NCBI GenBank assembly: GCA_964368835.1
Contig: CAYJCZ010000002.1
Location: 19,893-83,892 of the forward strand
Direction: 5' to 3'
Length of the DNA stretch: 64,000 nucleotides
Origin: an uncultured Candidatus Saccharibacteria bacterium
GTDB taxonomy: Bacteria; Patescibacteriota; Minisyncoccia; Phycocordibacterales; UBA6065
A program made the translations under genes and the position numbers. The notes beneath the pieces were generated by a model that ran no database searches, was not told the origin of the DNA, and saw nothing but the letters and a program-made list of their open reading frames with translations. Below, one piece after another: positions 2,015-40,971 of the stretch (positions within the stretch are counted from its first letter, which is position 1; the number at the start of each line of letters is the position of its first letter).

Positions 2015-2743
2015 ATGACGTCTCCTTACAAAGTCGCGATTTTTGATATTGATAACACGCTTACCGAAAGCCGTGCGCCTATTTCTAAAAATCTTGGACG
2101 ACTACTCTCCAAACTCATAGACGAGATGCCTGTTGCGATTATTTCTGGTGGCTCGCGACAAGATTTTGAAAAACAGGTGATATCACACCTCACATTTAAG
2201 AAAAAGGAGAATCTGTATGTTCTGCCAACAGAAGGGGCTGAACTTCAGGTCTATAAAAGCGGTTCTTGGCACACCGTGTATTCATATCCAATATCAGATC
2301 ACAACAGACGCATTATCATAGAGCGTCTCGCAAAGATTGCACGAGCAAAACCTACACAGATCGGACAGTATATTGAAGATCGAGGTGGAGTAATTGCATT
2401 ACACGGTATCGACAAGGACTCTTCACTTGAGGAAAAGTATGAATGGGATCCAACTCACGAGAGGCGCCGTGCGATTATTAAGCATCTTGAGCCTCATATG
2501 AAAGGAATTTCTATGAAAATTGCAGGTTCAACGACGATTAACTTTACCGAAATGGGAGTTGATAAGGCGTTTGGCATCAATAAGCTCCTTACGCACCTTA
2601 AAATTGCACCAAAAGATGCGGTTTTTGTGGGTGATTCGTTTGATGAAGGGGGAAATGATGCGCCGGCACTTACAACAGGGGTGGATATACGAAGAACAAG
2701 GAACCCTAAATCTACAGAAAGCATTGTTTTGGAGCTTTTATAG
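2015..2743 (+). CDS. HAD-superfamily (subfamily IIB-like) phosphatase/hydrolase
   Basis: FDIDNTLT motif I at the N-terminus, VGDSFDEGGND motif IV near the C-terminus, 242 aa. Confidence 0.7.
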   Translation: MTSPYKVAIFDIDNTLTESRAPISKNLGRLLSKLIDEMPVAIISGGSRQDFEKQVISHLTFKKKENLYVLPTEGAELQVYKSGSWHTVYSYPISDHNRRIIIERLAKIARAKPTQIGQYIEDRGGVIALHGIDKDSSLEEKYEWDPTHERRRAIIKHLEPHMKGISMKIAGSTTINFTEMGVDKAFGINKLLTHLKIAPKDAVFVGDSFDEGGNDAPALTTGVDIRRTRNPKSTESIVLELL

Positions 2744-2790
2744 CCCAAATTAGTCTTTAAAAAAAGCCCTAGAAAGGCTATAATAAAGGC

Positions 2791-5700
2791 ATGTTGCAGA
2801 TCGACACCAACGAACTGACCGAGAAGGCACGAGTGCTCGCTCATGCCCTTGGCAAAAACACATCTCTTATTTCAGGAGGTGATGCATCGCTTGTATATTT
2901 TAATGAATTCAAGCAGTCAGCTCATCGGGTTGATTCTCTCTATAGAAAGCTTGTCGAAGAGGTGGGTAAGCAGAAACATGTCACTCACGAGATTGAATCG
3001 ATTTTCGATAACTTTTTCGTTGTTGAGACCGCGATTTTTGATATACGGAATAATCTCAAGAAGGAAGATATTCGAAAGTTGCCCCTTATAAAGACTGCAA
3101 AGAATCGATCGCTACCTCGTCTTTATTACATCCTCTCAAAACTCATTGAGGAAACGAATCGTACGGTTGATAAAGATGTTATTAACCAATTCCTCGCTAC
3201 GTATCAGGAATACAGCCCGCTTTCTATTCGAGAACTATATGCAATTCCGGGGATACTTCAGATTGTGTTCGTTGAACATTTTGGAAAACTTATTGAAAAG
3301 GCAATCGACTCGCTCAAAGAATATGAAGAAGCGGGAAAGATTGTTAAAAAGATAAAAAAGGAGGTAGGAAAGAAAAATCTTCACAACTTTACAAAGATTA
3401 TTTCTGAGCTCGCGTCAGATTACAGCATCGTGCCGCTTTCTTTGGGATTTTATCTTCTTCAGAGACTTTCGCCAGAAGGTTCATCGATGAGGCCGATTTT
3501 GCGATGGCTTAAGCTTAACTTTGAAAAGCAGGGCATTAATGTGAAAGATCTTGCTGATCTTGAAAGCAGGGAGCGAGGCAAGAATTCCGTCACCGCGTCG
3601 AATATTATCGAGTCTTTGCATTGGCTCACACAGGCTCGTTGGGAAAATATTGTTGAAGGTATAAACGTTGTAGATAGCATTTTGGCGAAGGATCCATCGG
3701 GAGCTTTCCCTTTGATGAGCATGGAAAGCAAGAACCACTATCGTCAGGTGATTGTGCGTATTGCAGAGACATCAAGTATTCACGAAGCAGAAGTGGCGCG
3801 TACGGCAGTGCGTCTTGCTATTCAGGCGGGAGCTACAACTGAAAAGGGGAGAATAAAAGATAAGGCAGCTAATATCGCTGAAGGACATGTTGGGTATTAC
3901 CTTATCGATGATGGACGACTGTTACTTGAGAGTAGGATTGATTACGTTCCGACGTTTAAAGAAAAACTTTATCGATTCATAACAAATAATCCATCCGGAG
4001 TTTATTTTGGAGGCGCTATTACATTGGATTTGTTAGTAACAGGAGTTTTTTCGGCGATGATTATCAAGTCGGGCGCACATCCTGGTTTGGTTGCGGCGGC
4101 CACAATTCTCTCACTTTTTCTAAACCTTGAGATCGCGTTAAGTCTCATTAATGTTCTCCTTTCTAGGTTTTTGCCGGTCCGAAAGCTCGCGAGTCTTGAT
4201 TTGTCACCTGGCATAAGCGAAAAGCAGAGGACGTTTGTGGTCATCCCAACAATGATGAGAAGCCCTGAGTCCATCAAGGAAACGATGCGAAAACTTGAGG
4301 TCCGCTACTTGGGTAACAAGGGCGACAACATTTTGTACGCGATTCTTTTTGGTTTTAAAGATGCAGATAAAGAAGTATTGCCTGGAGATGATCTTTTGAT
4401 TGAAACTGCAAAAGAAGAAATTGCAGCGCTTAACAAAAAATATCCTTCGATTGAAAAGAAATTTCACGTCTTTTATCGTAAGCGCAGGTGGAATGATAAA
4501 GAGGCTACGTTTATGGAGTGGGAGAGGAAGCGAGGAAAGCTGCGTGAGTTTAATATGCTTTTGAGAGGAGTGCGGGGCACGACGTTTATAAACGAATCTG
4601 AGATGGATTCGATTTCTCGCGTTCAGTATGTAATTACACTTGATGAAGATACTGAGTTGCCAAAAGATAGCGCGCGAAAACTGATTGGTGCGATAAGTCA
4701 TCCGCTTAACACGCCGGTCTTTTCGAAAGAGGGGCATATGCTTGAGCGAGGGTTTGGAATCATTCAACCTCGAGCCGGTGTTCGTCTTGTAACTGCCGCA
4801 AAATCAATTTACTCAAGGCTCTATTCTATTGGCTCAGGAATTGATTCATATTCGAATGCGATTTCCGACGTGTACCAGGATCTTTTTGGTAACGCACTGT
4901 TTTTTGGAAAGGGAATCTACGATGTTGATGCGATTGAGAAAACTATGGAGGGTCAGATTCCAGATAACACTGTTCTCTCGCATGACTTACTCGAAGGTGT
5001 GTATGCTCGAACTGGTTACGCATCTGATGTAGTGCTCTTTGATGGATTCCCGAATTATTATCACGAGTTTTCTACCAGGCTTCATCGCTGGATCAGAGGA
5101 GACTGGCAGATTATTGGATGGCTTAAGAAAAAGAGGTGGCATATTTCGGGTACGGAAAGAACATTTACCCTCGTCGATCGATTCAAGATTTTTGATAATC
5201 TTCGTCGCAGTCTTGTGCCAGTGTTTACGCTCGCTTTGGTTGCGTTTGTATTTTTTGATCGTACGTCCTCGTTCGTCATTGCTTTACATGCATGTATTGT
5301 CCTAGCAGCGCCGTCATTTTTTGCCTTTCTAAACGATCTGTTCTCACTAAAGAAAATTCCTTTCCGAATACGAATCTTGGATGTATGCAAGCAGTTTGGG
5401 TATGCGATGATCCACACGATTCTACGAGCAGTCTTTCTTGTTCATCATGCAGCTGTATCGCTTTCAGCTATCGCGACGACCATTTGGAGACTCTTTGTAA
5501 CTAGAAAAAATCTTCTTGAATGGCAAAACTTTGCTGATGTAGGTAGAAAGTTCAAAGGACGACTCTATGAGTTCTATCGTTCGATGTACATTACTCAGCT
5601 CGTCCCGATAGTGTATTTTGCACACGTTTTTTATACAAAGACTTTTGATATTGAATCACTTCTTTTTGCGGTCGCGTGGTTTGCCTCACCGGTTGTGGGT

Positions 5701-8700
5701 TATGTGGTGAGCCGTCCGCTCGAGAGGGTACATGAAGTTAGCAAGGACAATGAGCGAATGCTTCGTTCGATTGCGTACAAAACCGCGCGCTATTTCCTTG
5801 ATCTGTCTCGTCGTGAAAACAATTGGCTTATTCAAGATCACTACCAAGAGTCACCAAAGATTTCTCAAGTCGACAGGCTTACCACGTCACCTACGAACCT
5901 TGGTATGCTTTTCACGTCACTCTTTTCATCATATGAACTTGGCTATTTGCCTCTTGATCAATTCTTGCAGAGGTCGCGTCGAGCATTTACGAGTCTTTTG
6001 AAACTTGAACGATATCGCGGGCATCTCTTTAATTGGTATGACATCGAGAAGCTCGAGCCTTTGTCGCCTGCATATCTATCGAGTGTGGACAGTGCCAATT
6101 TTGTTACAGCTCTGATTACATTCCGTCAGGGACTTCGCGGCATATCACTACGACCGATAATAAGCGACCATTCGATTCGGGGCATTGAGGATGGATTGTA
6201 TTCAATCAAAGCAGAGGCATATGTATTAAAGAAGAGCATAAAAAGCAGAGCGGAAAAAAATCTTGTAAAAGAGCTTTGTGCTTTGGCAGAAAAGGCTTAT
6301 GAGAAGGTGAAGCATGCAAAGCAGCCTAAACTCTTCTCAGATTTCTATACGTTATTTGGCCTCATTCACGCAGATATTGTTCATATAGAAAAGGCGGTGG
6401 CGAGTCTCCGTGCAGATCATGCGATTGTTGGCGCAGATCAACTTTTCTTCTTTGTTGAACACTTGGCAAAGCTTGTCGAGGAGGAGCTCGGTTTTGAAAG
6501 ATATCTTTTGCCACATCTTCATTCAAGAGATCATTCAATTGATACCCATGTTTCAAGAGACGAACATCTTTCTAAAGTGTACAAGCAGCTCATAGATCTT
6601 CTTGAAACAGTTCCGTCACTCTATGACGTTGGATACAAGATGATGGATCAGGTAAAAGTTTTTGACTTTAGAAAGATCGCCGTCGAGTCGAGTCTTATTC
6701 CTCAAACAAAGGAATATGTGATTACGTGGTATGACGAGCTACTTAAAGATATAAATCGATCACAGGCACGAGCGCGCGAGTTTTTGACTGATCTTGAAGC
6801 AATTGAACGAGATGCGACAAGGTTTATTGATGAGCCTGATTTTGGATTCCTTTACAACAAAGAGAGAGGACTCTTTCATATCGGATACAACGCAACATAC
6901 GAGCGAGTGGACAGTGCGTGCTATAACTTCCTCGCATCTGAATCAAACCTCGTAAGCTTTATCGCAATTCTTAAAAATCAGGTACCGCAGAAGCATTGGT
7001 TTTATCTTGGTAGAAAACTTGTTCGTTCTGGTGGGCAAGTTGCACTGGTGTCATGGGGAGGATCACTCTTTGAATACCTGACGTCACTTATTTATTTCAA
7101 GGCTCACAAGGAAAGCTTGCTTGGTTCAACAGCTCGAGCTGCTATTTCAATTCACCGTAAACATGGATTTAAAAGGAGGATTCCGTGGGGAATGGGCGAG
7201 TCTGCGTATTATTTGTTTGATGCAAGCAAGCATTATCAGTATCAAGTATTCGGTAGTCCTGCACTCGGTCTCAAGCGAGGTCTAGCGGATTATCAAGTGA
7301 TTGCTCCGTATGTGTCAGCGCTTTCACTTTCGTATGTTCCAGAGGCAGCGACAAAAAATCTTCAGAAAATGGCAACTCTCGGTGCTACCGGAAATTTTGG
7401 CTTCTACGATGCGCTTGATTATATGGACGAATCCCGTGCGCTTGTGCCAAAGCCTCTTCCAACTCGAGTTTACTATGCGCACCACCAGGGCTTTACGCTT
7501 TTAGGTATTCATAACTTCCTTGATACAGATCGAATCAGGAATCTTTTCCATTCAGATCCATCTGTCGCGTCACTTGAGATACTGCTTGAAGAAAAAATGC
7601 CTGCAACTCCAGCTGCGACAACCTTGTCACTTCCAACTCGACTTCCATTCACTGCTGCAACAGGAGTGTCGGATGATGGAACAGAGAGCAAGCAGTATAT
7701 TCCGGTCAAAACACCTCATCCACAATTTGCGCTCATTGGAAACGGCGTGTATTCAACAATGGTAAGTAACGCTGGTGCAGGGAAGTCTCGCTACAAGAAA
7801 GTTTCACTTACACGGTTCAAGGATGACACCATGCTTGAAGAAAGCGGCACCTTTGTCTATGTACGGAACGAAAAGACCAAGGCGATCTGGTCTCCAACTC
7901 TGCGACCACTCGGCGGTGAGACAAAACGACATAAAGTTGTGTATCACGAGAACAAGGCGGAGTTCGACACGATCTCTGGGAATGTCTCAAGTAAATTTGA
8001 GATTGCTGTAGATCCTCGTGATCCAGTTGAAGTTCGTTCACTTACACTTACCAATACAGGCGAAACTGCAGAGCGTCTTTCGATCGCAAGTTACGGCGAA
8101 GTTTCTTTGGCGCTTGAATCAGAAGAAAGCCATCACCCTCAATATCAAAAGCTTCTTGTGCGTTCAGTTTTCTCTGAAGAGTTTAATGCTCTCATTTATT
8201 CAAGACCGTACCCAGGCGACAGAACAAGAAAAATTTATTTTGCGCACATGCTTGCCCGAGACGGATTTGGCAAAGACAAAGTGTATGCGTGTGCTGACAG
8301 GGAATTCTTTATTGGACGCTCACGAAATATAAAAGACCCAATGTATTTCGACAGAATAGAAGATGCGCCGATAAAGGAATACACACTTGATCCGATTTTC
8401 TCACTTTCAAGAACCGTTGAACTCAAATCAAAAGAGTCTGCAAAATTCGTGTACGTAAACATTGCTCACGAGGATTATGAGTCTCTTATGGATCTTGTAC
8501 ATAAATATAAGAGGGGAGGCGTGGGAGTAAATGTCATTTCTGGAGCGCTCAAGGCAAGCGCAGAAAGAACACGTGATATTGGTATCACGCAGAGCATGGC
8601 GGTGTTGTTCCAGGATCTTGCATCGAGGGTGCTTGGTGGTAAGAATTTCGAACGACTCGAAGTGCCAGAGTCTCCGCTCCCTTACATTCACTCACTTTGG

Positions 8701-11562
8701 AAGCTCGGCATTTCTGGTGACTATCCTATTTTGGTCGTAAAGATTAAAGATATCGAAGATATTCAAACTATAAAGCACGCGCTCCTTTGTCACACCTATT
8801 GGAAGCATAAAGGTCTTGAAATTGATTTGGTTATACTAAACCAGGAGCCTGCAAGCTATATCAAGGTGCTTGATGATGAAATTGATTTCCTCCTGCGACA
8901 GAGCAAGGGAGTTAAAAGCGATGTTGCCGGCAGCGCGATTCATCACGTGAAGTCCGACCTTACTGAGGAAAGCGACAAGAGGGTGCTCCTTCATATCGCA
9001 CGTGTGATTCTCGATAGCAAAGACGGAACGTTCAAGCAGCAGATTCGTGCGTTTTCAAAATTTGCCAAGCTTCCGAAATATCCTGGTAAGCACATGCCGA
9101 CGCTGCGCGCGGTTCATCATGTACAGAAACAGATTCCTGCGCTTCCAGATAGTCTTCAGTTTAAAAATGCGTGGGGTGGATTTGATGCGGAGAAATCTGA
9201 GTATGTTATGAACGTAAGTTCAAACAACTTGCCGTATGCGCCGTGGTCAAACATCATTACATCTCCACACTTTGGAACAGTGGTGACTGAATCAGGTTCA
9301 ATGTTTACGTGGAGCAAGGACAGCTATGACAACAGAATCACATCATGGAATAACGATCCTCTCGTATTCAAGAGCTCTGAAATTATTTATCTGCGTGATG
9401 AAGCAACTGGCGAAGTTTGGAATCCAACACCGATGCCGATTCGAACCAAAAATCCTTTCACGGTTCGTCACGGAAAAGGATATACAGTATTCGAGCACGC
9501 TCGTGGACCACTCGTATGTTCACTTGAGGTAACGGTTTCTCATGAAAAGCCTGTAAAAATTCTTACATTAAAGGTTAAAAACGGTGGAGCAAAGGCGCGC
9601 ACTCTCTCTGAAACGGTATATCTTGAGCCAGCGATGAATATGTTCCGTGATCATGTACGAGACTTCATTACCTATGAGCGAGACGAAAAGACTGGCGCAC
9701 TTTTCTTTAAACAATCATTCAGAAATCAACTTCCAGATTCTACTGCGTTTGCTGATTTGTCAGGTGGAACATTTACCATAACTACTGATAAAGCAGAATT
9801 TTTGGGTCGCCATGGATCATTCGAGTATCCTGCAGCTTTGAAGCGCGAGGGACTTTCAAACGAAATTATGTCGGGAACAACCAACTGTGCGGTTCTTCAG
9901 ACCACCTTTACTGTTGAACCAGGAGAAGAAAAAGAAATTGTCTTTTTCCTCGGTGAAATTCAGGGCAAGGTGCACGCTCAAGAAATAGTTGAATCTTTGC
10001 GAAATAAATTTATAGCAAAGGACACAAGAAAAGCAGTTACTGATTTCTGGAAGAATACGAATTCTCATATCACTATTTCATCACCTGATAAGAGTCTTGA
10101 TGTACTCTTTAATTCACAGCTTTTGTATCAGGCACTTTCATCACGTATTTGGGGAAAGACCGGCTACTATCAGCCATCAGGAGCGTTTGGATTCCGAGAC
10201 CAGCTCCAGGACATGTCTGCATTCATTTGGTCAAAGCCACATGATGTAAGGGAATTTATACTGAAAGCTGCCGCACATCAGTTTAAAGAGGGAGACGCAC
10301 TCAACTGGTGGCATGATCACAATAATTTCGGCGCACGATCGGTACTTTCTGATCACCAGCTCTGGCTTGTATATGTGACCCTCGATTACGTCGCAATCAC
10401 CGGCGATGAATCGATACTTGATGTTGAGATTCCATTCCTCGAAGGTCCTGCACTTAACTTTGCATATCAAAGAGAGTGGGCCGGCATACCAAAGGTCTCA
10501 AATGAAAAGGGAACGCTGTATGAACACTGCGTAAGAGCTCTCGCAAAAAGCTCGGTTCTGGGCGAGCACGAATTGCCACTTATAGGTCAAAGCGATTGGA
10601 ATGACAGCTTGAGCCGTGCTGGAATCTTGGGTCGAGGTGAAAGCGTGTGGAACGGATGGTTTTTGGGAATGCTCACACACAGATTCTCTGCAATCGCTCG
10701 CAAGCGTGGTGAGGTAGATAAGGCAGAATACTATGCGTCTTATTCACAAGGCCTCGCAAAAGCTCTCGAGAAGCACGCGTGGGATGGCAGGTGGTATAGA
10801 CGAGCGTTTCTTGATTCAGGAACAGTTCTTGGTTCAAGGAAACTCAGTGAATTTAAAATCGACTCAATCGCACAATCATGGGCGGTGCTCTCTGGTCTTG
10901 CTCCAAAGGATCATGTTGAAAAGGCGATGGACTCTACGTTTGCCGAACTTTTTGACGGATCAAATATGAAGCTTCTTACACCGGCTCTTAAAAATGCGCC
11001 TTTTGATCCAGGCTATTTGAAAGATTATCCACCAGGCGTTCGAGAAAATGGATCACAATACAACCATGCTGCGCTATGGGCAGTTCAGGCATTCTTTAAA
11101 TCAGGCAACGCAGACAATGCGATGAAGGTTCTTAATCTTATAAATCCATTCAAGCGCACAGATTCTCCAGAAAAATCAAAAGAATATCGTGTTGAGCCAT
11201 ATGTTGTTGCGTCAGATATTTATGCTGAACCATCATATAAGGGTAGAGGAGGATGGACATGGTACACAGGATCAGCAGGTGTTATGTATCGAACGATTCT
11301 TGAATATCTTTTCGGTGTTCGAGTTGAAGAAGGATACCTCGTGCTCAATCCATCATTGCCAAGCGATTGGACAACAGCAACGGTAAGTTATAACCGAGCG
11401 GGTACGATTTATAAGATTACGTATGAAAAGCCAGCGGATACTCTCGCTGATGTGTCTGAAGTGTCAGAAAACGGTGTGATTATGCCAGACAAGAAAATCC
11501 TTCTTTCAAAGGATGGAAAGACTCACGATATACGAGTGGTTCTAAAACCAAGAGGAAAGTAG
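2791..11562 (+). CDS. Giant (2923 aa) membrane glycosyltransferase/glycoside phosphorylase, cyclic beta-1,2-glucan synthase-like (Cgs/NdvB/ChvB architecture)
   Basis: Several TM segments in the N-terminal third. GT-A-like region with a DxD motif (ITLDEDTELP). C-terminal about 1000 aa shows GH94 (cellobiose-phosphorylase-like) signatures (GYYQPSGAFGFRDQLQDM, NWWHD, YNHAALWA). The overall size and domain order match known cyclic glucan synthases (about 2800-2900 aa). Confidence 0.65.
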   Translation: MLQIDTNELTEKARVLAHALGKNTSLISGGDASLVYFNEFKQSAHRVDSLYRKLVEEVGKQKHVTHEIESIFDNFFVVETAIFDIRNNLKKEDIRKLPLIKTAKNRSLPRLYYILSKLIEETNRTVDKDVINQFLATYQEYSPLSIRELYAIPGILQIVFVEHFGKLIEKAIDSLKEYEEAGKIVKKIKKEVGKKNLHNFTKIISELASDYSIVPLSLGFYLLQRLSPEGSSMRPILRWLKLNFEKQGINVKDLADLESRERGKNSVTASNIIESLHWLTQARWENIVEGINVVDSILAKDPSGAFPLMSMESKNHYRQVIVRIAETSSIHEAEVARTAVRLAIQAGATTEKGRIKDKAANIAEGHVGYYLIDDGRLLLESRIDYVPTFKEKLYRFITNNPSGVYFGGAITLDLLVTGVFSAMIIKSGAHPGLVAAATILSLFLNLEIALSLINVLLSRFLPVRKLASLDLSPGISEKQRTFVVIPTMMRSPESIKETMRKLEVRYLGNKGDNILYAILFGFKDADKEVLPGDDLLIETAKEEIAALNKKYPSIEKKFHVFYRKRRWNDKEATFMEWERKRGKLREFNMLLRGVRGTTFINESEMDSISRVQYVITLDEDTELPKDSARKLIGAISHPLNTPVFSKEGHMLERGFGIIQPRAGVRLVTAAKSIYSRLYSIGSGIDSYSNAISDVYQDLFGNALFFGKGIYDVDAIEKTMEGQIPDNTVLSHDLLEGVYARTGYASDVVLFDGFPNYYHEFSTRLHRWIRGDWQIIGWLKKKRWHISGTERTFTLVDRFKIFDNLRRSLVPVFTLALVAFVFFDRTSSFVIALHACIVLAAPSFFAFLNDLFSLKKIPFRIRILDVCKQFGYAMIHTILRAVFLVHHAAVSLSAIATTIWRLFVTRKNLLEWQNFADVGRKFKGRLYEFYRSMYITQLVPIVYFAHVFYTKTFDIESLLFAVAWFASPVVGYVVSRPLERVHEVSKDNERMLRSIAYKTARYFLDLSRRENNWLIQDHYQESPKISQVDRLTTSPTNLGMLFTSLFSSYELGYLPLDQFLQRSRRAFTSLLKLERYRGHLFNWYDIEKLEPLSPAYLSSVDSANFVTALITFRQGLRGISLRPIISDHSIRGIEDGLYSIKAEAYVLKKSIKSRAEKNLVKELCALAEKAYEKVKHAKQPKLFSDFYTLFGLIHADIVHIEKAVASLRADHAIVGADQLFFFVEHLAKLVEEELGFERYLLPHLHSRDHSIDTHVSRDEHLSKVYKQLIDLLETVPSLYDVGYKMMDQVKVFDFRKIAVESSLIPQTKEYVITWYDELLKDINRSQARAREFLTDLEAIERDATRFIDEPDFGFLYNKERGLFHIGYNATYERVDSACYNFLASESNLVSFIAILKNQVPQKHWFYLGRKLVRSGGQVALVSWGGSLFEYLTSLIYFKAHKESLLGSTARAAISIHRKHGFKRRIPWGMGESAYYLFDASKHYQYQVFGSPALGLKRGLADYQVIAPYVSALSLSYVPEAATKNLQKMATLGATGNFGFYDALDYMDESRALVPKPLPTRVYYAHHQGFTLLGIHNFLDTDRIRNLFHSDPSVASLEILLEEKMPATPAATTLSLPTRLPFTAATGVSDDGTESKQYIPVKTPHPQFALIGNGVYSTMVSNAGAGKSRYKKVSLTRFKDDTMLEESGTFVYVRNEKTKAIWSPTLRPLGGETKRHKVVYHENKAEFDTISGNVSSKFEIAVDPRDPVEVRSLTLTNTGETAERLSIASYGEVSLALESEESHHPQYQKLLVRSVFSEEFNALIYSRPYPGDRTRKIYFAHMLARDGFGKDKVYACADREFFIGRSRNIKDPMYFDRIEDAPIKEYTLDPIFSLSRTVELKSKESAKFVYVNIAHEDYESLMDLVHKYKRGGVGVNVISGALKASAERTRDIGITQSMAVLFQDLASRVLGGKNFERLEVPESPLPYIHSLWKLGISGDYPILVVKIKDIEDIQTIKHALLCHTYWKHKGLEIDLVILNQEPASYIKVLDDEIDFLLRQSKGVKSDVAGSAIHHVKSDLTEESDKRVLLHIARVILDSKDGTFKQQIRAFSKFAKLPKYPGKHMPTLRAVHHVQKQIPALPDSLQFKNAWGGFDAEKSEYVMNVSSNNLPYAPWSNIITSPHFGTVVTESGSMFTWSKDSYDNRITSWNNDPLVFKSSEIIYLRDEATGEVWNPTPMPIRTKNPFTVRHGKGYTVFEHARGPLVCSLEVTVSHEKPVKILTLKVKNGGAKARTLSETVYLEPAMNMFRDHVRDFITYERDEKTGALFFKQSFRNQLPDSTAFADLSGGTFTITTDKAEFLGRHGSFEYPAALKREGLSNEIMSGTTNCAVLQTTFTVEPGEEKEIVFFLGEIQGKVHAQEIVESLRNKFIAKDTRKAVTDFWKNTNSHITISSPDKSLDVLFNSQLLYQALSSRIWGKTGYYQPSGAFGFRDQLQDMSAFIWSKPHDVREFILKAAAHQFKEGDALNWWHDHNNFGARSVLSDHQLWLVYVTLDYVAITGDESILDVEIPFLEGPALNFAYQREWAGIPKVSNEKGTLYEHCVRALAKSSVLGEHELPLIGQSDWNDSLSRAGILGRGESVWNGWFLGMLTHRFSAIARKRGEVDKAEYYASYSQGLAKALEKHAWDGRWYRRAFLDSGTVLGSRKLSEFKIDSIAQSWAVLSGLAPKDHVEKAMDSTFAELFDGSNMKLLTPALKNAPFDPGYLKDYPPGVRENGSQYNHAALWAVQAFFKSGNADNAMKVLNLINPFKRTDSPEKSKEYRVEPYVVASDIYAEPSYKGRGGWTWYTGSAGVMYRTILEYLFGVRVEEGYLVLNPSLPSDWTTATVSYNRAGTIYKITYEKPADTLADVSEVSENGVIMPDKKILLSKDGKTHDIRVVLKPRGK

Positions 11563-12138
11563 GCCGGGCTTTTTGAAATCTACCTTCGGTACAGATTTAT
11601 AGTTAGGGTTTTTTACAAACTCAACTTTGCCGCTTTTCTCTACGACATAGTACGCTGCGCCGTGAAGTTTTCGGAAAGGTTCGTAATCAGCATGTCCAGG
11701 GAGGCTTACCGCGTCTTTTTCTTCAAAATTAACAGGGCTGTCATCAGATGTGACGAACCATGTTTTGCCGATGTTTACCGCAAGGTGCCCAGAGCCGCTT
11801 GGAATAAAGACAGAGTCGCCAGCTTTCACTTTGATTGCTTTAAAAGACTCAATTTCGTCATCAATAGGTTTACCTGCCGCATCGGTCTTGCGTACCTGCA
11901 TGATGATAATGCCTTCGCCGGAAAGGACCGAGTAGGTCTCATCAAGCTTACCTACGTGGTAATGGCCGTATGTCTTTATGTATTCGTCGCCAACAGTGCC
12001 GGTCTCCCAGACTGTTACATTTGTCTTGTTACTGCCTCCACGGATCATATGATAGTGAATTTGGGGCCCAGAAGCATTGGGATCCTTGAGAACTTCCTTC
12101 ATTTTCTCGTGTGTGCGCTCTGCGTATGGTTGTATCAT
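11542..12138 (-). CDS. Cupin-type (archaeal-type) glucose-6-phosphate isomerase
   Basis: 198 aa. Shows TYGHYH, PSGSGHLAVN and a C-terminal EKSGKVEFVKNPNYK region, close to the Pyrococcus/Thermococcus cupin PGI motifs TKGHFH, PPYWAHRTVN and IEENGEVKVVDNPRWK. Confidence 0.7.
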   Translation of the reverse strand: MIQPYAERTHEKMKEVLKDPNASGPQIHYHMIRGGSNKTNVTVWETGTVGDEYIKTYGHYHVGKLDETYSVLSGEGIIIMQVRKTDAAGKPIDDEIESFKAIKVKAGDSVFIPSGSGHLAVNIGKTWFVTSDDSPVNFEEKDAVSLPGHADYEPFRKLHGAAYYVVEKSGKVEFVKNPNYKSVPKVDFKKPGLLSSWF

Positions 12139-16893: not shown

Positions 16894-16917
16894 GTATGTA
16901 AATCAAGCAATAAATTG

Positions 16918-19906: not shown

Positions 19907-19980
19907 GCGCCTATAGCTCAGTTGGTTAGAGCATCGAGCTTATACCTCGAGGGTCCTTGGTTCGAGTCCAAGTAGGCGCA
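19907..19980 (+). tRNA. tRNA-Ile (anticodon UAU)
   Basis: Cloverleaf: acceptor gcgccta/taggcgc, D arm gctc-agttggttag-agc, anticodon stem tcgag/ctcga with loop cttatac (anticodon TAT), T arm cttgg-ttcgagt-ccaag. No encoded CCA. Confidence 0.7.
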
Positions 19981-20079
19981 CAAAATCTACTTAATTTTTT
20001 CAAACGCACGACTTTTTTGATACCGAGGTAGGTGCTATTGACAAATCCTTATATATAGTATATGGTTCGAAACGAAAAA

Positions 20080-24099: not shown

Positions 24100-24142
24100 A
24101 TATTTATATTAAGAATATGTATTACTACTACGATAGCACACC

Positions 24143-25027: not shown

Positions 25028-25119
25028 GGAGACGTGTCAGAGTGGTCTAACGTGCCTCTTTGCTAAAGAGGTGTGCCCCTTATAAGGCACCGAGGGTTCG
25101 AATCCCTCCGTCTCCGCCA
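25028..25119 (+). tRNA. tRNA-Ser (anticodon GCU), CCA encoded
   Basis: Acceptor ggagacg/cgtctcc, anticodon stem cctct/agagg with loop ttgctaa (GCT), long variable arm, T arm gaggg-ttcgaat-ccctc, 3' gcca. Confidence 0.8.
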
Positions 25120-25203: not shown

Positions 25204-26310
25204 ATGACTTATGCACTAGCTTGGAAATCAGAGTCAGAGGCGTTTTTGGCGGCAGATACCGCTCTAACTAGTGCGCCGGATCCTAAAACTCAAAATATCA
25301 CGCAATCAAGTTTTGGGCAGGATCATGTTGTAAATGAAGAAGGCAAGAAAGTAGAGGAAAGAGTGGTTAAGTTGTTTTTGAAGAAAAACATAGGAGTTGT
25401 GTTTGCTGGTAATTATTCTACGGCACTAGAAATTATAGGATCATTCTACGAGGAGATAGATCGAGGAAAAAATCCTACTGATTCTTTAAATGAAGCCTTG
25501 TTCAAGAATGTTATTCCATCAGGAAAGACAGTTCAATTGGCAATTGCCTATTATGATCAAGGGCCCAAGATTTTATCCTTTAATGCCAATCATGACTTTC
25601 AAATTAAAGAAGAGGAACGGATCCAAATTGGTAACCCATTACCAATTCATAGGAAGTTATCGGAAGATTGGTTTAAAGATATAAATTCAAAAATAAACGG
25701 AAGACCGTCTTTAAATCTCACGGCCTTTCTTGGTGTTTTCCAAAGTTATAATTTGTTTAGCCCGCAAATGGAGAGGGGAATAGGTGGGGCATTTTGTGGT
25801 CTTTATATTGATAAATCGGGAGGCAGGTGGCAGCCAGATATTCTATTTATTGAATATGGTGGAGATGCTGAAAAGCTTGTGAGTACTTGTTTTAGGCATG
25901 ATTGTCTGGTTGTTAGTTCACCTGTAATCGGTCAGAGTCGATGTCTTGTAAGTTTTTTACCTTCACAGACGCAGGCGTTCTTATTAGGACAGGCGAAGAA
26001 AGCGGTTGAGAAGGGAAAAAAGTTATATAAATCTGCTGAGTTCGAATACATAGTTATTTTGGGGGTTAAAAGCGTAACGGTGACTGTGATAGAGATGAGG
26101 AGAAATCTAAAGCACGTTTTTATTTGGTTGGCGCATTATGTTGACCGTGGTCGGAATCGTGATGGGTTGAAAATTGCGATGTTTCCAAAACTGAAAGAGA
26201 TTATACTTAATCCCGAGTCGAAGCTCACGGTTATAGATTATATAAAATCGGACGTTAAAGAGATTCCTGAAGAGAAGATCCTAAGGAAACATATTTCCTA
26301 TGATTTATAA
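25204..26310 (+). CDS. Protein with N-terminal HslV/proteasome-beta-like Ntn-hydrolase domain plus an about 190-aa C-terminal extension of unknown function
   Basis: Begins MTYALAWKSESEAFLAADTALTS (Thr directly after Met, Asp at position 17). Then GKKVEERVVKLFLKKNIGVVFAGNYSTALEIIGSFYEEI parallels the HslV segment [34 protein letters not shown]. The GSG region is degenerate. Confidence 0.45.
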   Translation: MTYALAWKSESEAFLAADTALTSAPDPKTQNITQSSFGQDHVVNEEGKKVEERVVKLFLKKNIGVVFAGNYSTALEIIGSFYEEIDRGKNPTDSLNEALFKNVIPSGKTVQLAIAYYDQGPKILSFNANHDFQIKEEERIQIGNPLPIHRKLSEDWFKDINSKINGRPSLNLTAFLGVFQSYNLFSPQMERGIGGAFCGLYIDKSGGRWQPDILFIEYGGDAEKLVSTCFRHDCLVVSSPVIGQSRCLVSFLPSQTQAFLLGQAKKAVEKGKKLYKSAEFEYIVILGVKSVTVTVIEMRRNLKHVFIWLAHYVDRGRNRDGLKIAMFPKLKEIILNPESKLTVIDYIKSDVKEIPEEKILRKHISYDL

Positions 26311-27226
26311 GATTGAACATAAAATCCTAACCCTCTCTCAAAATGCGGTTATGAATCAGCAGGGAACCCCTCCGGGTTTTGTAGCAGAAGGAATTACCTT
26401 TTCTCATTGGGATTTTAACTATATTGAGGGCTGGAAATATGATTTTTGGCTTGCTGAAGGGGAGATTGATGCATCTAATGCTGCAGATGCAATAAATCAA
26501 TTTAGAAAATCGTTAGAACGGGTTGTAGTTCGTGTTGCCTTAATAGGACAGAGCTATATTGAATATGATTTAGAACCTTGGTTGGTAAGAAAAGAGGGTA
26601 GTGACACATTCCTTTATCGTCACATTAATGATGGATCGGGAGTGGGTCTAATGTTTCAAGAAGAAGATAGAAAAGCATTACAAAAACTTCTTGAAAACAA
26701 AAAGATTCCCGAAGCTTTTTATTATTATTGGAATGACGCGGTGAATTCCATTGGATATTGCCCCAAATTACTTTTGATGTTTTCAGCCATTGAATCTTTA
26801 GTTAAAAAGGATAATGGCAAAAAGGATTGGGATAAAATTAAAAAGATTCTCGGAGAGGATTTGGCTGCTGACTTATTTGGTACCAAAGGAGAGACTCATC
26901 TCGGGTTAAGAAATAGGCTGGTGCACGGAGAGTATTTCGATAAGACGGATACAGGAAAGAATTATTTAGAGCTAGTGCATAAAAAAGTAATATCTTATTT
27001 TAATGATGAGATCATTAAGGAAAATCTGATAACTCTTGATATAGTTCATCCCCAAAGACATTTTTTTGGTAACAAAACAGGTGGTTTTGTATTTTTGAAT
27101 AAAAAGTCAAAGGATTTGAATCTAGATCTTAAATATATTTCATCAACGTTTGGAGAAAATGGTCCTAAAAATGATGAGCGGTATGAAATAGTCTATTTAG
27201 GTAAGCCCGCATCAGAGGTGTATTAG
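26300..27226 (+). CDS. Hypothetical protein with C-terminal HEPN-like Rx4H motif (LRNRLVHGEY)
   Basis: 308 aa. Overlaps the upstream gene by 11 nt, which fits an operon. The RNxxxH motif sits in a predicted helical C-terminal region and resembles Abi/DUF4145-type HEPN domains. Confidence 0.35.
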   Translation: MIYKIEHKILTLSQNAVMNQQGTPPGFVAEGITFSHWDFNYIEGWKYDFWLAEGEIDASNAADAINQFRKSLERVVVRVALIGQSYIEYDLEPWLVRKEGSDTFLYRHINDGSGVGLMFQEEDRKALQKLLENKKIPEAFYYYWNDAVNSIGYCPKLLLMFSAIESLVKKDNGKKDWDKIKKILGEDLAADLFGTKGETHLGLRNRLVHGEYFDKTDTGKNYLELVHKKVISYFNDEIIKENLITLDIVHPQRHFFGNKTGGFVFLNKKSKDLNLDLKYISSTFGENGPKNDERYEIVYLGKPASEVY

Positions 27227-27413: not shown

Positions 27414-27959
27414 GTGATTAAATTTAAAGAGTGTATAGATAAGCTGGCTAATAGGCTTCATATCAGGAAAGATCGAATTCTCCCGTTTCTCTTTGCTGTT
27501 AGTCTAACTATTGTATTTTTTCTCGACTCGACTTATTTCAATAATCGGGCACTTTATGTCCTTGCGATACTCGCACTTCTCGCGCTTGCTACTGTCGTTT
27601 CGATAATCGCCATACAAGCAGGTTTTACTATTTTGAAATCTTTGTTTCTGTTGAGTGCAGAGCTCTCCTTGCTTTTCCTTCTTGCACAATCATATTGCGA
27701 TGCAACGTCAGTTGCATCAGCAGGGGATAACGCTCTCCGAACTCTTGTAGGTCTTGGAATTGCATACATATCATATCGATTCTATGTCGAGCTTAAAGAA
27801 GCGCTTAAGAAAAAACTCGAGAGCCTTCCTCAGAAAGGATGGCCGAAAGAGAAGGTGATTGTAGTCCTAATCTTCCTCTTTTACGCTTTCGTATTTATCT
27901 ACGGAATCTATCAGGTTGTCAGCCCAATCGTCCTAGACCTTTGCGTATTTAAACGATAA
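27414..27959 (+). CDS. Hypothetical membrane protein (about 5 TM)
   Basis: Hydrophobic helices throughout, 181 aa. Confidence 0.4.
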   Translation: MIKFKECIDKLANRLHIRKDRILPFLFAVSLTIVFFLDSTYFNNRALYVLAILALLALATVVSIIAIQAGFTILKSLFLLSAELSLLFLLAQSYCDATSVASAGDNALRTLVGLGIAYISYRFYVELKEALKKKLESLPQKGWPKEKVIVVLIFLFYAFVFIYGIYQVVSPIVLDLCVFKR

Positions 27960-28548: not shown

Positions 28549-29523
28549 ATGTCAAAATCACAAGAAAATTCGATAGTTATTAAAAATCTTACCAAATCGT
28601 TCAAGGATCTTCAGGTCTTGAAGGGTATTAATCTTGTTGTACCAAAGGGCAAAATGCTTGCTCTTTTGGGTCCAAACGGCGCCGGCAAGACAACGACCGT
28701 TCGTATTCTCTCTACGCTTCTCAAACCAGACGGAGGGGAAGTCACTATCGAGGGCGTAGACCTTTTCAAAAATCCAAACAGAATCCGACACCTCATTGGC
28801 CTTACAGGTCAGTACGCGGCTGTTGACGAATATCTCACGGGCGAAGAAAACATCATCATGATGGGTGAGCTTTATCATCTCGGAAAGGCTGAAAGCAAAA
28901 AGCGCGCACAGGAACTCTTAAAGCAGTTTGATCTTGTTGAAGCTGGAAACAGGAAAGCAAAAACTTATTCAGGAGGTATGAAGCGACGACTCGACCTTGC
29001 GCTATCGCTCGTTGCGACTCCGCCGGTAATATTTCTCGATGAGCCTACGACGGGACTTGATCCTCGTTCTCGAATCGCAATGTGGAATGTGATTGAGCGA
29101 CTCATGAAAGACGGCGCGACAATTCTTCTTACAACGCAGTATTTGGAAGAGGCAGATAAACTCGCTGACAAAATTGCGGTGATTGATCATGGACGCGTGA
29201 TTGCCGAAGGAACCGCTGACGAGTTGAAGGCGCAAGTGGGAAGTGATCATCTTGAGCTTGTGATTTCAGGCAAGAGCAATCTTGAAAACGCTTTGCGTGA
29301 AGTAGGCGGCGAAGCAAAGTCTGATGCTGTTGAACGTATTATATCTGTGCCTCTAGCGCATGGTGTTAAGGATGTAAAAATGATCCTCGACAAACTCGAG
29401 CGTGCAGGAATTGAAATTGATTCTATGGCGGTCCTAAAGCCAACTCTCGACGATGTATTCCTCAAACTTACCGGTCACGGCGCACTCCATGATGCAAGCG
29501 AGGATAAGAAGGCTAAAAAATAA
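28549..29523 (+). CDS. ABC transporter ATP-binding protein (DrrA-like, ABC-2 type exporter)
   Basis: Walker A GPNGAGKTT, signature YSGGMKRRL, Walker B IFLDEPTTGLD, plus a C-terminal domain. Confidence 0.9.
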   Translation: MSKSQENSIVIKNLTKSFKDLQVLKGINLVVPKGKMLALLGPNGAGKTTTVRILSTLLKPDGGEVTIEGVDLFKNPNRIRHLIGLTGQYAAVDEYLTGEENIIMMGELYHLGKAESKKRAQELLKQFDLVEAGNRKAKTYSGGMKRRLDLALSLVATPPVIFLDEPTTGLDPRSRIAMWNVIERLMKDGATILLTTQYLEEADKLADKIAVIDHGRVIAEGTADELKAQVGSDHLELVISGKSNLENALREVGGEAKSDAVERIISVPLAHGVKDVKMILDKLERAGIEIDSMAVLKPTLDDVFLKLTGHGALHDASEDKKAKK

Positions 29524-29527
29524 ATCT

Positions 29528-30349
29528 ATGAACGACACACCTCTTACAATTCAAAAGACAGAAGGAATACCAGAGCGAAGCGGCATTTTGTGGGCGCTTA
29601 ATGATTCGCGCATTCTTATACAGCGCAGCTTGCGACATATTTTCCGAAATATGGACCAGCTTTTGTCTTTGGCGATTCAGCCAATAATGTTTATGCTTTT
29701 GTTCCGCTATGTATTCGGTGGGGCAATCGCAACTGAAGGAACAACATACGTAAACTTCCTCGTAGCTGGAATTTTGATCCAAACAGCAGCATTCGGAGCG
29801 ACAACGACGGCACTTTCTGTTGCTACTGACCTTACCCGAGGAATCGTCGACAGACTCAAATCATTGCCGATCGTAAGCTCAGCAGTGCTCACGGGACATG
29901 TGTTTGCTGATCTCGTGCGAAACGTTATTTCGTCAGCGGTTATGATTGCAGTCGCATTCCTCGTAGGCTTCAGACCAACAGCTTCATTTACAGAATGGCT
30001 CCTTATTTTAGGAATACTTCTACTCTTTACACTCGCATTCTCATGGGTTTCTGCAATTTTGGGATTGCTTGCAAAAAGCATCGAAGCGGTTCAGTGGCTT
30101 ACCTTTATGCTCGTGTTTCCTTTGACGTTCGCGAGCGCAGCGTTCGTACCAACAGATTCAATGCCAAAGTTTTTGCGCATATTTGCTGAAAACCAGCCGA
30201 TTACGCATGTGATTGAAGCTATGCGATCCCTTATGGTGGGCACACCGATGGGTAATCACGGCATCGCCGCTGTGATTTGGTGCGTTGCGATTATACTTAT
30301 AGCTGTTCCACTCGCGACATATCTTTTCCGAACACGAGTGTCAAAATAG
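29528..30349 (+). CDS. ABC-2 family transporter permease
   Basis: Six predicted TMs. The start is set to the ATG (MNDTPLTIQK) 5 nt after the ATPase stop. Confidence 0.75.
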   Translation: MNDTPLTIQKTEGIPERSGILWALNDSRILIQRSLRHIFRNMDQLLSLAIQPIMFMLLFRYVFGGAIATEGTTYVNFLVAGILIQTAAFGATTTALSVATDLTRGIVDRLKSLPIVSSAVLTGHVFADLVRNVISSAVMIAVAFLVGFRPTASFTEWLLILGILLLFTLAFSWVSAILGLLAKSIEAVQWLTFMLVFPLTFASAAFVPTDSMPKFLRIFAENQPITHVIEAMRSLMVGTPMGNHGIAAVIWCVAIILIAVPLATYLFRTRVSK

Positions 30350-33849: not shown

Positions 33850-33856
33850 ACCGAGT

Positions 33857-34750: not shown

Positions 34751-36457
34751 ATGAGCATAGTCGATATCCTTGTACAGAAAAAACTGCTAGACAAGAAAGA
34801 CGCTGCGGCTGCAACTGAAGAGGTGCGGCTTACTGGCGAATCTATTGAATCAATCCTGAGTAAAAAAGGAGTGAAGGATTTTGATATTCTCGAAGCAAAA
34901 GGAGAATACCTTGGAGTGCCAGCACTGTCGCTTAAGGATATTGATATTCCTTTTGATGTTTTGAAATACATTCCTGAGGAATCAGCGATGCATTACAAAT
35001 TTGTCCCTGTCGCTGTTGCCGATAATGCTCTTGAAGTTGGAATGGTTGACCCTGATGATATTGAGGCACGTGACGCTCTCAACTTTATCGCTTCAAAGGT
35101 AAATATGCCTTTTAAACTTTTTCTTATCACAGAAGAAGATTTTAAAGCTGCGATATCTCTTTATCGAGGACTTTCTGGAGAAGTTACAAAAGCCTTGGAT
35201 GAACTTGAAACTGATATTGATGATATTGAAAGTGAGATTGATGAAAGTCAGGTAAGTAAAGATGGCGAGACAACAATCATTGAAGATGCACCGGTTACAA
35301 AAATCGTGGCGACAATCTTGCGCTATGCCGTAGAAGGGAATGCGTCTGACATTCACGTCGAACGTATGGTTGATAAGGTTCGTGTGCGTTTCCGTGTTGA
35401 CGGTGATCTTCACACGTCACTTATTCTGCCAATTAAAGTGCACGACGCTGTCGTTGCTCGTATTAAAATTTTGTCGAACATGAAGCTTGATGAAAAGCGA
35501 AAGCCACAAGACGGCCGCTTTTCTGCTCGTATTGAAACCCGCAAGATAGACTTCCGTGTGTCTACATTCCCAGCCTATTACGGTGAAAAGGTGGTGATGC
35601 GAATTCTTGATCAGGAAAAAGGCGTGAAAACGCTTGAAGAAATTGGTTTCTCACCCCAGAACCTTCAGGCTATCAGGCGTGCGATGGCTCGACCGTATGG
35701 ACTTATTCTCGTCTCTGGTCCGACAGGATCTGGTAAGTCGACGACACTCTACTCGATGCTCAAAGAGATTAATGATGAGTCAAAAAACGTTCTTTCACTC
35801 GAAGATCCGGTTGAATACAACATGGAAGGTGTGAGCCAGTCGCAGGTAAAGCCAGAAATCGGATATACCTTTGCATCGGGACTTCGAACGACATTGCGTC
35901 AGGACCCAGACATCATCATGGTGGGAGAAATTCGAGACAAAGAGACCGCACAGCTTGCTATTCAGGCCGCGTTGACGGGTCATCTTGTGCTTTCAACTAT
36001 CCACACCAACACCGCAATCGGTGTCATTCCTCGACTTATAGACATGGGAGTAGATCCGTACCTGATTGCACCAACTTTGGCACTTTCAATGGCACAGAGA
36101 CTCGTATCAAAAATCTGCGAGGGCGGTAGAGAAGTGGTTATCGAGGGTTCAATCGACGCTATGATCACCAAACAGTTTGCAGATCTTCCTCCAGATTTTA
36201 AAAAGAATATTAAAGTTCCAAAAAGTGTCCTCGAAGCAGAAGCATCGGCGGCATGTCCTAATGGAGTACGAGGTCGAATGGCGGTTGCTGAGGTTATTGA
36301 GATGGATCGAGAATTCGAGCGAGCGATACTTACGAATGCCACTGAAGAGACGATTTATAAGCTTGCCCGAAGCAAAGGAATGCTCACTATGAAAGAGGAT
36401 GCAATTTTGAAAGCTTTCAATGGTGAGGTGCCGTGGAGCGAAGTGAATAAGCTCTAA
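34751..36457 (+). CDS. pilB: Type IV pilus assembly ATPase PilB (GspE family)
   Basis: N-terminal GSPII domain, Walker A GPTGSGKSTT, Asp and His boxes, a tetracysteine-like region. 568 aa. Confidence 0.9.
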   Translation: MSIVDILVQKKLLDKKDAAAATEEVRLTGESIESILSKKGVKDFDILEAKGEYLGVPALSLKDIDIPFDVLKYIPEESAMHYKFVPVAVADNALEVGMVDPDDIEARDALNFIASKVNMPFKLFLITEEDFKAAISLYRGLSGEVTKALDELETDIDDIESEIDESQVSKDGETTIIEDAPVTKIVATILRYAVEGNASDIHVERMVDKVRVRFRVDGDLHTSLILPIKVHDAVVARIKILSNMKLDEKRKPQDGRFSARIETRKIDFRVSTFPAYYGEKVVMRILDQEKGVKTLEEIGFSPQNLQAIRRAMARPYGLILVSGPTGSGKSTTLYSMLKEINDESKNVLSLEDPVEYNMEGVSQSQVKPEIGYTFASGLRTTLRQDPDIIMVGEIRDKETAQLAIQAALTGHLVLSTIHTNTAIGVIPRLIDMGVDPYLIAPTLALSMAQRLVSKICEGGREVVIEGSIDAMITKQFADLPPDFKKNIKVPKSVLEAEASAACPNGVRGRMAVAEVIEMDREFERAILTNATEETIYKLARSKGMLTMKEDAILKAFNGEVPWSEVNKL

Positions 36458-36493: not shown

Positions 36494-36901
36494 ATGGAAA
36501 AGAAAAACGTAAAAGTGTTCATTGTAGACGATGATAAGTTCCTACTAGGAATGTATTCATTAAAGTTTGCTAATAATGGTTACGACGTCGATACGACCGT
36601 CGGTTCTCCCGCTGCACTTGAAAAGCTCCGTAGTGGTGCAAAGCCTGACGTACTCTTGCTTGATATTGTCATGCCCTATATGGACGGTCTTGAACTTCTA
36701 AAGACCATTCGTGACGAGAATCTTGCCCAAGAAGCAGTAGTTATCATGCTTACCAATCAGAGCCAGTCATCTGATATTGAGAAGGCAAAGGAGCTTAATG
36801 TTGATGGATATATTATCAAAGCGGAGACAATTCCTTCGGAAGTATTAAATCAGGTTGAAAAGATTTATACGACAAAGAAGGGAGGAGCGAAGAAGAAATA
36901 A
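36494..36901 (+). CDS. Single-domain response regulator (CheY-like receiver)
   Basis: Receiver-domain acidic residues: VDDD near the N-terminus and LLLDIVMPYMDG (putative phospho-acceptor Asp). 135 aa with no output domain. Confidence 0.8.
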   Translation: MEKKNVKVFIVDDDKFLLGMYSLKFANNGYDVDTTVGSPAALEKLRSGAKPDVLLLDIVMPYMDGLELLKTIRDENLAQEAVVIMLTNQSQSSDIEKAKELNVDGYIIKAETIPSEVLNQVEKIYTTKKGGAKKK

Positions 36902-40554: not shown

Positions 40555-40971
40555 ATGAAAACAAAACCTCTTGCTCAAAAAGGATTTACTTTAATTGAGA
40601 TACTTATAGTCATCGCAATTATTGGAGTGTTTTCGGTTATAGTTCTCGCATCTACAAGCGCAGCAAGGCAAAAGGCACGTGATGAAGCAAGATTGGGCGA
40701 TCTCAGGTCAATTCAGCTCGGCCTTGCTTTGTATCATGACGTAAACAGGGGATATCCTGCTGGAACAGACATCTCTGCACTTAATGTATTGCTCACTGAG
40801 AAATACCTACCAGCTATTCCAACAGACCCTTCGGGCGCTCCATACGAGTATATGCTCACTGGCTCAAGGTACTGTCTTGGTGCAACAGTGGAACGAACTC
40901 CGCCAGAAGGGTCGGCAGTTTGTACAAGCGCACCTAGCGGATCAACGGCGAATTATAAAGTCCAACGATAA
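40555..40971 (+). CDS. Type IV pilin-like protein 3
   Basis: QKGFTLIEILIVIAIIGVFS prepilin motif. 138 aa. Confidence 0.7.
   Translation: MKTKPLAQKGFTLIEILIVIAIIGVFSVIVLASTSAARQKARDEARLGDLRSIQLGLALYHDVNRGYPAGTDISALNVLLTEKYLPAIPTDPSGAPYEYMLTGSRYCLGATVERTPPEGSAVCTSAPSGSTANYKVQR

Follow-up and report, generated by a model that had tools for sequence, protein, structure and literature searches.

Among diderm Proteobacteria, cyclic beta-1,2-glucans are a classic example of molecules that serve host interaction and osmoadaptation. What, then, is a gene of the type that makes them doing in a bacterium of the candidate phyla radiation (CPR), a group known for very small genomes? The question is raised by a 64-kb stretch of DNA (hereafter the window, meaning the whole stretch at its full length), in which a single gene, here called cgs (2791..11562, + strand), covers about 14% of the sequence. 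We analyzed the encoded protein, its relatives and its gene neighborhood computationally. We consider it likely, at a probability of roughly 0.8, that the gene specifies a synthase of cyclic beta-1,2-glucans (Cgs) that is linked, in a CPR lineage, with a cassette forming alpha-glucose-1-phosphate (G1P). By its homology the protein is a member of the known Cgs family, and the enzyme itself is no new system. Three things appear not to have been described before in the literature searched: the cassette that joins cgs to genes for a putative alpha-phosphoglucomutase and a cupin-type phosphoglucose isomerase (PGI), a CPR-specific clade of Cgs proteins, and the substitutions around the cyclase site that mark this clade.

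The original prediction of one 2923-residue protein proved exact in both coordinates and length: the gene starts with ATG and runs as an intact open reading frame (ORF) of 2923 codons plus a stop. At about 43% G+C, a frame this long cannot have arisen by chance. The G+C content across the gene (0.42-0.45) does not depart from that of the remaining window. A near-identical protein, with 7 differences, is encoded in an independent assembly, and an ortholog that is 85% identical (locus L001) sits on a 219-kb contig in a matching gene order. Comparison of the gene with the L001 ortholog gave a nonsynonymous divergence (dN) of 0.098, with synonymous sites saturated (pS 0.71), and constraint was evident in every domain. 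The N-terminal domain is 91% identical between the two proteins, and the glycosyltransferase (GT) domain, at 90% identity and a dN of 0.08, is the best-conserved part after it. We found 360 Cgs homologs in all, and the lengths of the domains and segments of the window protein equal the family medians. We conclude that cgs is a working gene under strong purifying selection and not a relic or an artifact. A pseudogene or an assembly chimera was rejected in view of the intact frame, the homolog-like length, the matching synteny on independent contigs and the uniform G+C content.

The architecture of the protein was tested with Pfam and NCBIfam profiles, with phmmer searches against solved structures and with a Kyte-Doolittle hydropathy scan (19-residue window). 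A combination of GT and glycoside hydrolase family 94 (GH94) domains of the Cgs/NdvB/ChvB type had been proposed from the sequence, and the expected homology was found: against the solved structures of Agrobacterium tumefaciens Cgs/NdvB (8RF0/8RF9), the protein gave E = 0 and 1529 bits, colinear over residues 33-1149 and 1339-2889. Pfam recognized the GH94 supersandwich domain (PF06165, 3e-118, in two stretches) and the GH94 catalytic domain (PF17167, 4.4e-96), and structures of cellobiose and chitobiose phosphorylases matched the C-terminal 800 residues at 1e-63 to 3e-65. Both predicted domains are therefore present, but a central cyclase domain of family GH189 had been overlooked. The isolated cyclization domain from the CGS of Thermoanaerobacter italicus (T. 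italicus; 8WY1) matches this domain at 3.5e-94 / 1.2e-65, and part of it is matched (residues 1382-1589) by the Pfam 'glucoamylase' model PF10091 (GH144/GH189-like, (alpha/alpha)6 fold; 4.8e-17). Residues 1150-1338 form the sole stretch that does not align to the Agrobacterium enzyme. The length of this stretch is typical of the family, and it is the counterpart of the variable helical insertion described in the cyclization (CY) domains of the A. tumefaciens and T. italicus enzymes.

The order of domains can be read along the + strand. An N-terminal scaffold domain (residues 1 to about 400; 2791..3990), which has no Pfam match and aligns to A. tumefaciens Cgs from residue 33 onward, is followed by transmembrane (TM) helices 1 and 2 (about 404-461; 4000..4173), with hydropathy peaks of 1.83 and 2.14 and in the same position as in that enzyme. 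Next come the GT84 domain (about 466-800; 4186..5190), placed by residue mapping onto A. tumefaciens Cgs, and TM helices 3-6 (about 804-975; 5200..5715), placed by hydropathy. The CY domain (GH189; about 981-1621; 5731..7653), with its helical insertion at about 1150-1338, was delimited by the 8WY1 alignment and PF10091. The GH94 region (GP1, a Rossmann-like insert and GP2-3; about 1622-2923; 7654..11559) was delimited by the two PF06165 matches, PF17167 and the A. tumefaciens alignment. By hydropathy, the peaks at residues 404-428, 431-461, 804-826, 825-853, 876-899 and 954-975 make up a six-helix, 2+4 arrangement. The membrane segments of the original prediction therefore exist, but they do not lie at the extreme N terminus, where they had been placed; the segments at 404-461 and 804-975 flank the GT domain.

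To compare functional residues, we mapped the protein through the phmmer alignments and a MAFFT alignment of 120 sequences onto positions established for characterized enzymes (Sedzicki et al. 2024, PMC10901819; Tanaka et al. 2024, PMC10834661; Nakajima review, PMC11842490). With the exception of the column occupied by Gly521, all mapped catalytic residues are invariant in 119-120 of the 120 homologs. In the GT84 domain, the DxD motif that had been noted from the sequence is present within TLDEDT (residues 616-621), where D618/D620 correspond to A. tumefaciens D624/D626. The primer tyrosine, in the IF1-homology loop, is Y687 of GIDSY (A. tumefaciens Y694; tyrosine in 120/120), the catalytic base is D732 (A. 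tumefaciens D739), and the RW motif with its flanking arginine is R766-W767-x-R769 (A. tumefaciens R773/R776). The cyclase retains its acid/base E1384 in FLASE (T. italicus E1356, A. tumefaciens E1300), its nucleophile E1470 in WGMGES (T. italicus E1442) and the supporting histidine H1564 (T. italicus H1536), each in 120/120. The GH94 residues D2470 (in FRD) and D2605 (in DWND), the latter being the catalytic acid, match A. tumefaciens D2393 and D2528 and are likewise conserved in 120/120. The three GH94 motifs quoted earlier were also located, FRDQLQD at residue 2468, NWWHD at 2505 and YNHAALW at 2757.

Which organism carries this gene? A reduced, partner-associated host had been suspected, and this suspicion holds: the closest relatives of two proteins, FtsH and Cgs, all point to CPR Parcubacteria/Paceibacteria. 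The window FtsH has a 100% match on an NCBI contig of 148,655 bp, and its closest named relatives are all from the CPR (Candidatus Parcubacteria, Taylorbacteria at 87%, Paceibacterota and 'Patescibacteria group'). The named relatives of Cgs are from Paceibacterota (57%, 45% and 42%), Spechtbacterales (42%) and a Nomurabacteria metagenome-assembled genome (MAG; 52%). In a neighbor-joining tree of the 120 best homologs, the query and 25 others (P0002-P0026) formed one clade that holds every CPR-named relative, whereas Cgs proteins labeled as Acidobacteria, Proteobacteria, Chloroflexi or Actinomycetia fell outside it and were at most about 37% identical. The window has further features that are common in CPR genomes: its type IV pilus genes form a full cluster, and many of its ORFs are without a family match. 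On the basis of these relationships, the host of cgs is a Paceibacteria/Parcubacteria bacterium.

A scan of metagenome contigs with the clade-specific peptide patterns SWGGSLFE and Y[ND]F[LI]ASE[SA]N added about 35 Cgs genes from varied environments, the majority belonging to the CPR type, which indicates that the trait is recurrent in a subset of Paceibacteria. A scan of GTDB genomes with peptide patterns from the window protein found one locus, in the Nomurabacteria MAG; these patterns were overly specific, and the result is not a measure of prevalence. The metagenome scan also returned many loci (L052-L092) that we had considered as fusions of CY and GH94 domains without a GT. This interpretation was rejected, as the parts in L055 are separate adjacent genes (3178..5643 and 5654..7780) for a GH94-like protein of 821 residues and a GH144/GH189-like protein of 708 residues, each about 30% identical to the corresponding Cgs domain. 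From their gene content, loci of this kind look like beta-1,2-glucan utilization loci and not synthases.

The genes on either side of cgs appear to encode enzymes of hexose phosphate metabolism. The upstream gene (2015..2743, + strand), which ends 47 nt before cgs, encodes a HAD-IIB protein of 242 residues. It matches the phosphomannomutase (PMM) family PF03332 nearly end to end (34.8 bits against a cut-off of 22.4) and also PF08282. Its best solved relative is the alpha-phosphoglucomutase of Lactococcus lactis (4BND, E = 1.2e-31, residues 6-238), followed by PMM2 (1e-12) and PMM1, and the DxDxT nucleophile motif is kept as FDIDNTL. Its database relatives are labeled 'HAD-IIB family hydrolase' or 'phosphomannomutase'. 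The gene is best read as a HAD-type alpha-phosphoglucomutase. It had been described as a HAD phosphatase, a description that was right about the family and the position, but by its matches to 4BND and PF03332 the protein resembles a phosphoglucomutase or phosphomannomutase more than a plain phosphatase. The predicted cupin PGI immediately downstream was also found, as a gene of 198 codons on the opposite strand (11542..12138, - strand), convergent with cgs and sharing 21 nt with the end of it. The protein matches PF06560 at 1.4e-19 (70.5 bits against a cut-off of 20.7) and the cupin PGI structures of P. furiosus and T. litoralis at E about 3e-7, and the P. furiosus metal ligands H88, H90, E97 and H136 align with H, H, E and H.

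This neighborhood is shared by many members of the clade. Among about 27 distinct CPR-clade loci, the cupin PGI gene adjoins cgs in 13, usually convergent and downstream and once upstream on the same strand, and a mutase-like HAD gene adjoins it in 10, where it points in the direction of cgs or diverges from it. In 16 of these loci at least one of the two genes is no more than 310 nt from cgs, compared with none of the 11 loci that are not of the CPR type. A tree of the locus-derived proteins placed the cassette in two major CPR subclades, in differing orientations. As PGIs of the PF06560 type are otherwise rare and scattered in the CPR (Jaffe et al. 2020, PMC7304191), their linkage to cgs is no chance neighborhood; no description of this linkage was found in the literature searched. 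In one locus (L010), a gene of the histidine phosphatase family next to cgs was considered as a substitute for the HAD mutase and was dropped, since it recurs in L005 only.

The spacer upstream of cgs contains a promoter-like site, TTTAAA-17-TATAAT (2756..2784, + strand; 10/12 in a consensus scan), which overlaps a small hairpin (AGCC...GGCT). The perfect TATAAT lies 6 nt ahead of the cgs ATG, with AAAGG, resembling a ribosome-binding site, in between; such sites are rarer in the region as a whole than in shuffled sequence. The string GGCTATAATA(A/G)AGG(C/T)ATG is kept in L001, while other parts of the spacer have diverged. The segment 2756-2790 may be an internal promoter that gives a very short leader or none at all.

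How might these proteins work together? By homology with A. tumefaciens Cgs, the enzyme would be a protein of the cell membrane, held there by its six helices, and its catalytic domains would all lie on the cytoplasmic side. The GT84 domain would glucosylate Tyr687 on its own loop and then extend a beta-1,2-glucan chain from UDP-glucose. The GH94 domain would trim this chain with phosphate, releasing alpha-G1P, and the GH189 domain, through E1384 and E1470, would transglycosylate the chain onto itself to yield a ring of roughly 17-25 glucoses. The HAD mutase would interconvert glucose-6-phosphate (G6P) and G1P, and the cupin PGI would interconvert fructose-6-phosphate (F6P) and G6P, so that glycolytic F6P would be connected to a pool of G1P. 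This pool would feed UDP-glucose synthesis and take in the G1P released by GH94, and the two enzymes would also return this G1P to glycolysis.

Several observations weigh against this reading. The Pfam GT2 models remained below threshold on the GT region (E 0.05-0.07) and the NCBIfam search of the entire protein gave zero matches, so that the region is assigned to GT84 through its alignment with solved Cgs structures. The main sequence-level caveat is within this domain, where the first UDP-coordinating aspartate (A. tumefaciens D527, BcsA D179) is replaced by Gly521 (codon 4351-4353). The column is D in 116 of the 120 homologs and G in 4; glycine was found in the window Cgs and in the related proteins P0002 and P0003, and P0021 and L034 have acquired it independently. 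Aspartate at the position of BcsA D179 is regarded as important in other GT2 synthases, and its loss could weaken GT activity. Its recurrence in proteins that are otherwise intact and under selection leads us to read the change as probably tolerated. The clade also differs from other Cgs proteins at 18 fixed positions, 11 of which are in the CY domain. The latter stand beside the catalytic glutamates, within residues 1380-1568 (about 6928-7494 in the window), and include FLASE(S/A)N in place of LLASExR (N1386 in place of R), SWGGSLFEYLTS in place of SWSGSMFEYLMP and WGMGES in place of WGISES. With such changes at the cyclase site, the ring size or the product could differ. The cassette is absent from the basal members and from one CPR subclade, whose proteins are 43-45% identical to the query, and so the HAD and cupin PGI genes are not obligatory partners of cgs. 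Finally, the window and the examined flanks of CPR loci yielded neither a gene for UDP-glucose pyrophosphorylase (galU) nor one for an exporter of the ChvA/NdvA/Cgt type. A fused ABC_membrane and ABC_tran exporter gene, in particular, is missing from the window, where the only ABC pair is of the ABC-2 type and lies 17 kb away (28549..30349).

The glycine substitution suggests a different source of glucose for the chain. If it crippled the GT84 domain, beta-1,2-glucan might be built or remodeled from G1P by the reversible GH94 domain, with the neighboring enzymes supplying G1P and GH189 closing the ring. The direct adjacency of G1P-forming enzymes and the failure to find galU in the window would fit such a scheme, as would the synthesis of beta-1,2-glucans from G1P in vitro by GH94 beta-1,2-oligoglucan phosphorylases that is reported in PMC3960220. 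We nevertheless regard it as very improbable, because the remaining catalytic residues of GT84 and its primer tyrosine are intact, the domain has stayed 90% identical at a dN of 0.08, and the independent recurrence of the substitution in otherwise intact proteins suggests that it is tolerated. The cassette, moreover, does not track the substitution, being found mostly beside Cgs proteins that retain the aspartate (for example L003, L006, L028 and L031). The substitutions in the CY domain raise a separate possibility, in which the synthase is active and its product is unlike the classical ring with a degree of polymerization of 17-25, being either a ring of another size or a largely linear chain. 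That 11 of the 18 CPR-fixed positions cluster near the catalytic glutamates speaks for such a shift, but both glutamates and the supporting histidine are invariant and the length of the CY domain is unchanged, and we consider it quite improbable.

A third explanation would reverse the direction of flow. Scavenged beta-1,2-glucans from a host or the environment would be phosphorolyzed, and the G1P released would pass through the mutase and the isomerase into glycolysis. CPR bacteria depend on scavenged compounds, the catalytic residues of GH94 are intact, and the order G1P, G6P, F6P fits the neighboring genes. However, dedicated utilization loci such as L055 employ separate soluble GH94 and GH144-type enzymes and not a membrane synthase of 2923 residues, and the features specific to a synthase, namely the primer tyrosine, DxD motif, catalytic base, RW motif and six TM helices, are all constrained here. 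In addition, no sugar importer is linked to cgs, and finished cyclic glucans are not cleaved by Cgs (PMC11842490). These points make a catabolic unit highly improbable, and we favor synthesis of a cyclic beta-1,2-glucan from UDP-glucose, with the cassette connecting the G1P pool to glycolysis.

Where would such a glucan go? The original prediction spoke of a periplasmic cyclic glucan. Its identification of a Cgs synthase stands, but CPR cells are believed to be without an outer membrane and without a periplasm, and no exporter gene was found nearby; 'periplasmic' is for that reason an unsafe description. The product may serve in osmoprotection, as part of the envelope or where the bacterium meets a host cell. 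That a full synthase takes up so large a share of the window, and is conserved across the CPR clade, argues that its product matters for the envelope or for a symbiotic lifestyle.

Other features of the window were recorded alongside this analysis. Upstream of the HAD gene, two paired genes (685-1900, - strand) encode a regulator of the Fur family and a ZIP metal transporter, in the same place as in L001 and L002. Just beyond the cupin PGI gene, a cohesin-domain protein of 451 residues is encoded at 12206-13561, as also in L001, and a protein of 760 residues with PKD repeats is encoded at 61606-63888; both are likely to be surface proteins. A gene for transfer-messenger RNA (tag AKSVKSPFVANNFSFAFANA) adjoins smpB (- strand), which is followed by ftsH (+ strand), at 16507-17385, and the order of smpB and ftsH is common to L001. 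The type IV pilus cluster is complete (32001-43580, + strand). It encodes PilM, a PilO-like protein, a PilB-type ATPase (34751..36457), a response-regulator receiver protein (36494..36901), a PilT-type ATPase, PilC, six proteins with a pilin motif for N-terminal methylation and a prepilin peptidase (40971..41783).

In most bacteria, the codon AUA is read by a lysidine-modified tRNA with a CAT anticodon. ARAGORN identified a tRNA-Ile with the anticodon TAT at 19907-19981, which is uncommon in bacteria, and two tRNAs with CAT anticodons at 48607-48681 and 49535-49608, 850 nt apart. The G+C content dips to 0.37-0.41 at 24001-28000, compared with 0.42-0.46 elsewhere; the dip comes right after a tRNA-Ser gene (25028..25119) and contains three ORFs without Pfam matches (25204..26310, 26300..27226 and 27414..27959), and this region may be a small integrated element. 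A release-factor ORF at 52276-53145 encodes only 289 residues, with the PCRF profile matched only from position 98, and an equivalent of 293 residues is present in the locus of P0018. The release factor of this lineage may have a short N terminus, or else its translation may begin in a different frame, as happens with the frameshift of prfB.

Annotation of these synthases is inconsistent, being 'glucoamylase family protein' at NCBI and 'cellobiose phosphorylase' or 'cyclic beta-1,2-glucan synthetase' at JGI. In the literature searched, a Patescibacteria MAG is listed with a cyclic glucan synthase in a passing mention in an ecology paper (PMC10876117); beyond this, nothing was found that links Parcubacteria, CPR or Patescibacteria to beta-1,2-glucan, glucan synthetase, cyclic glucan or GH94. 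The conserved gene linkage offers a testable route from glycolysis to glucan and a genomic marker for the trait in CPR genomes, and the conservation of Cgs in ultra-small, probably episymbiotic bacteria turns the function of cyclic glucans in such cells into a testable question.

Among characterized systems, the closest comparison is with A. tumefaciens Cgs (ChvB/NdvB; PMC10901819). The two proteins share their length class and the order of N-terminal domain, two TM helices, GT84, four TM helices, CY and GH94 with a Rossmann-like insert, and the window protein keeps the DxD motif, catalytic base, RW motif, primer tyrosine, CY glutamates and GH94 aspartates. They differ in that identity is moderate over most of the length, D527 has become glycine, and the CY helical insertion of the window protein is unaligned and about 80 residues longer, as is typical of environmental homologs. 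The hosts differ as well, one being a diderm alphaproteobacterium and the other a CPR bacterium with no chvA-type exporter gene nearby. The CGS of T. italicus (8WY1; PMC10834661), characterized as an isolated GH189 domain, is a precedent for Cgs outside Proteobacteria and shares the two glutamates and the histidine with the window protein, whereas the substitutions that are fixed near these residues in the CPR clade are peculiar to it. Of the neighboring proteins, the HAD protein aligns over its full length with L. lactis 4BND and with PMM1/PMM2 and has the DxDxT motif in common with them, at about 35-40% identity at best, and the cupin protein shares the metal site of the Pyrococcus/Thermococcus PGIs, to which its similarity is weak (E about 3e-7).

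Brucella abortus Cgs, which is accompanied by the exporter Cgt and the modifier Cgm, belongs to the same family, and the window protein would follow its four steps: initiation, elongation, control of length and cyclization (PMC11842490). In Brucella and Agrobacterium, the ABC exporter Cgt/ChvA moves the glucan to the periplasm, unlike the window and related CPR loci, in which none was found. Tentatively, Paceibacteria may make cyclic beta-1,2-glucans by means of the cassette and use the rings differently from Proteobacteria, either as an osmoprotectant retained in the cytoplasm or wall or as a secreted factor for contact with a host. Were this possibility to hold, it would parallel the way in which Brucella, Agrobacterium and rhizobia manipulate their hosts with cyclic glucans, except that both partners would be prokaryotes.

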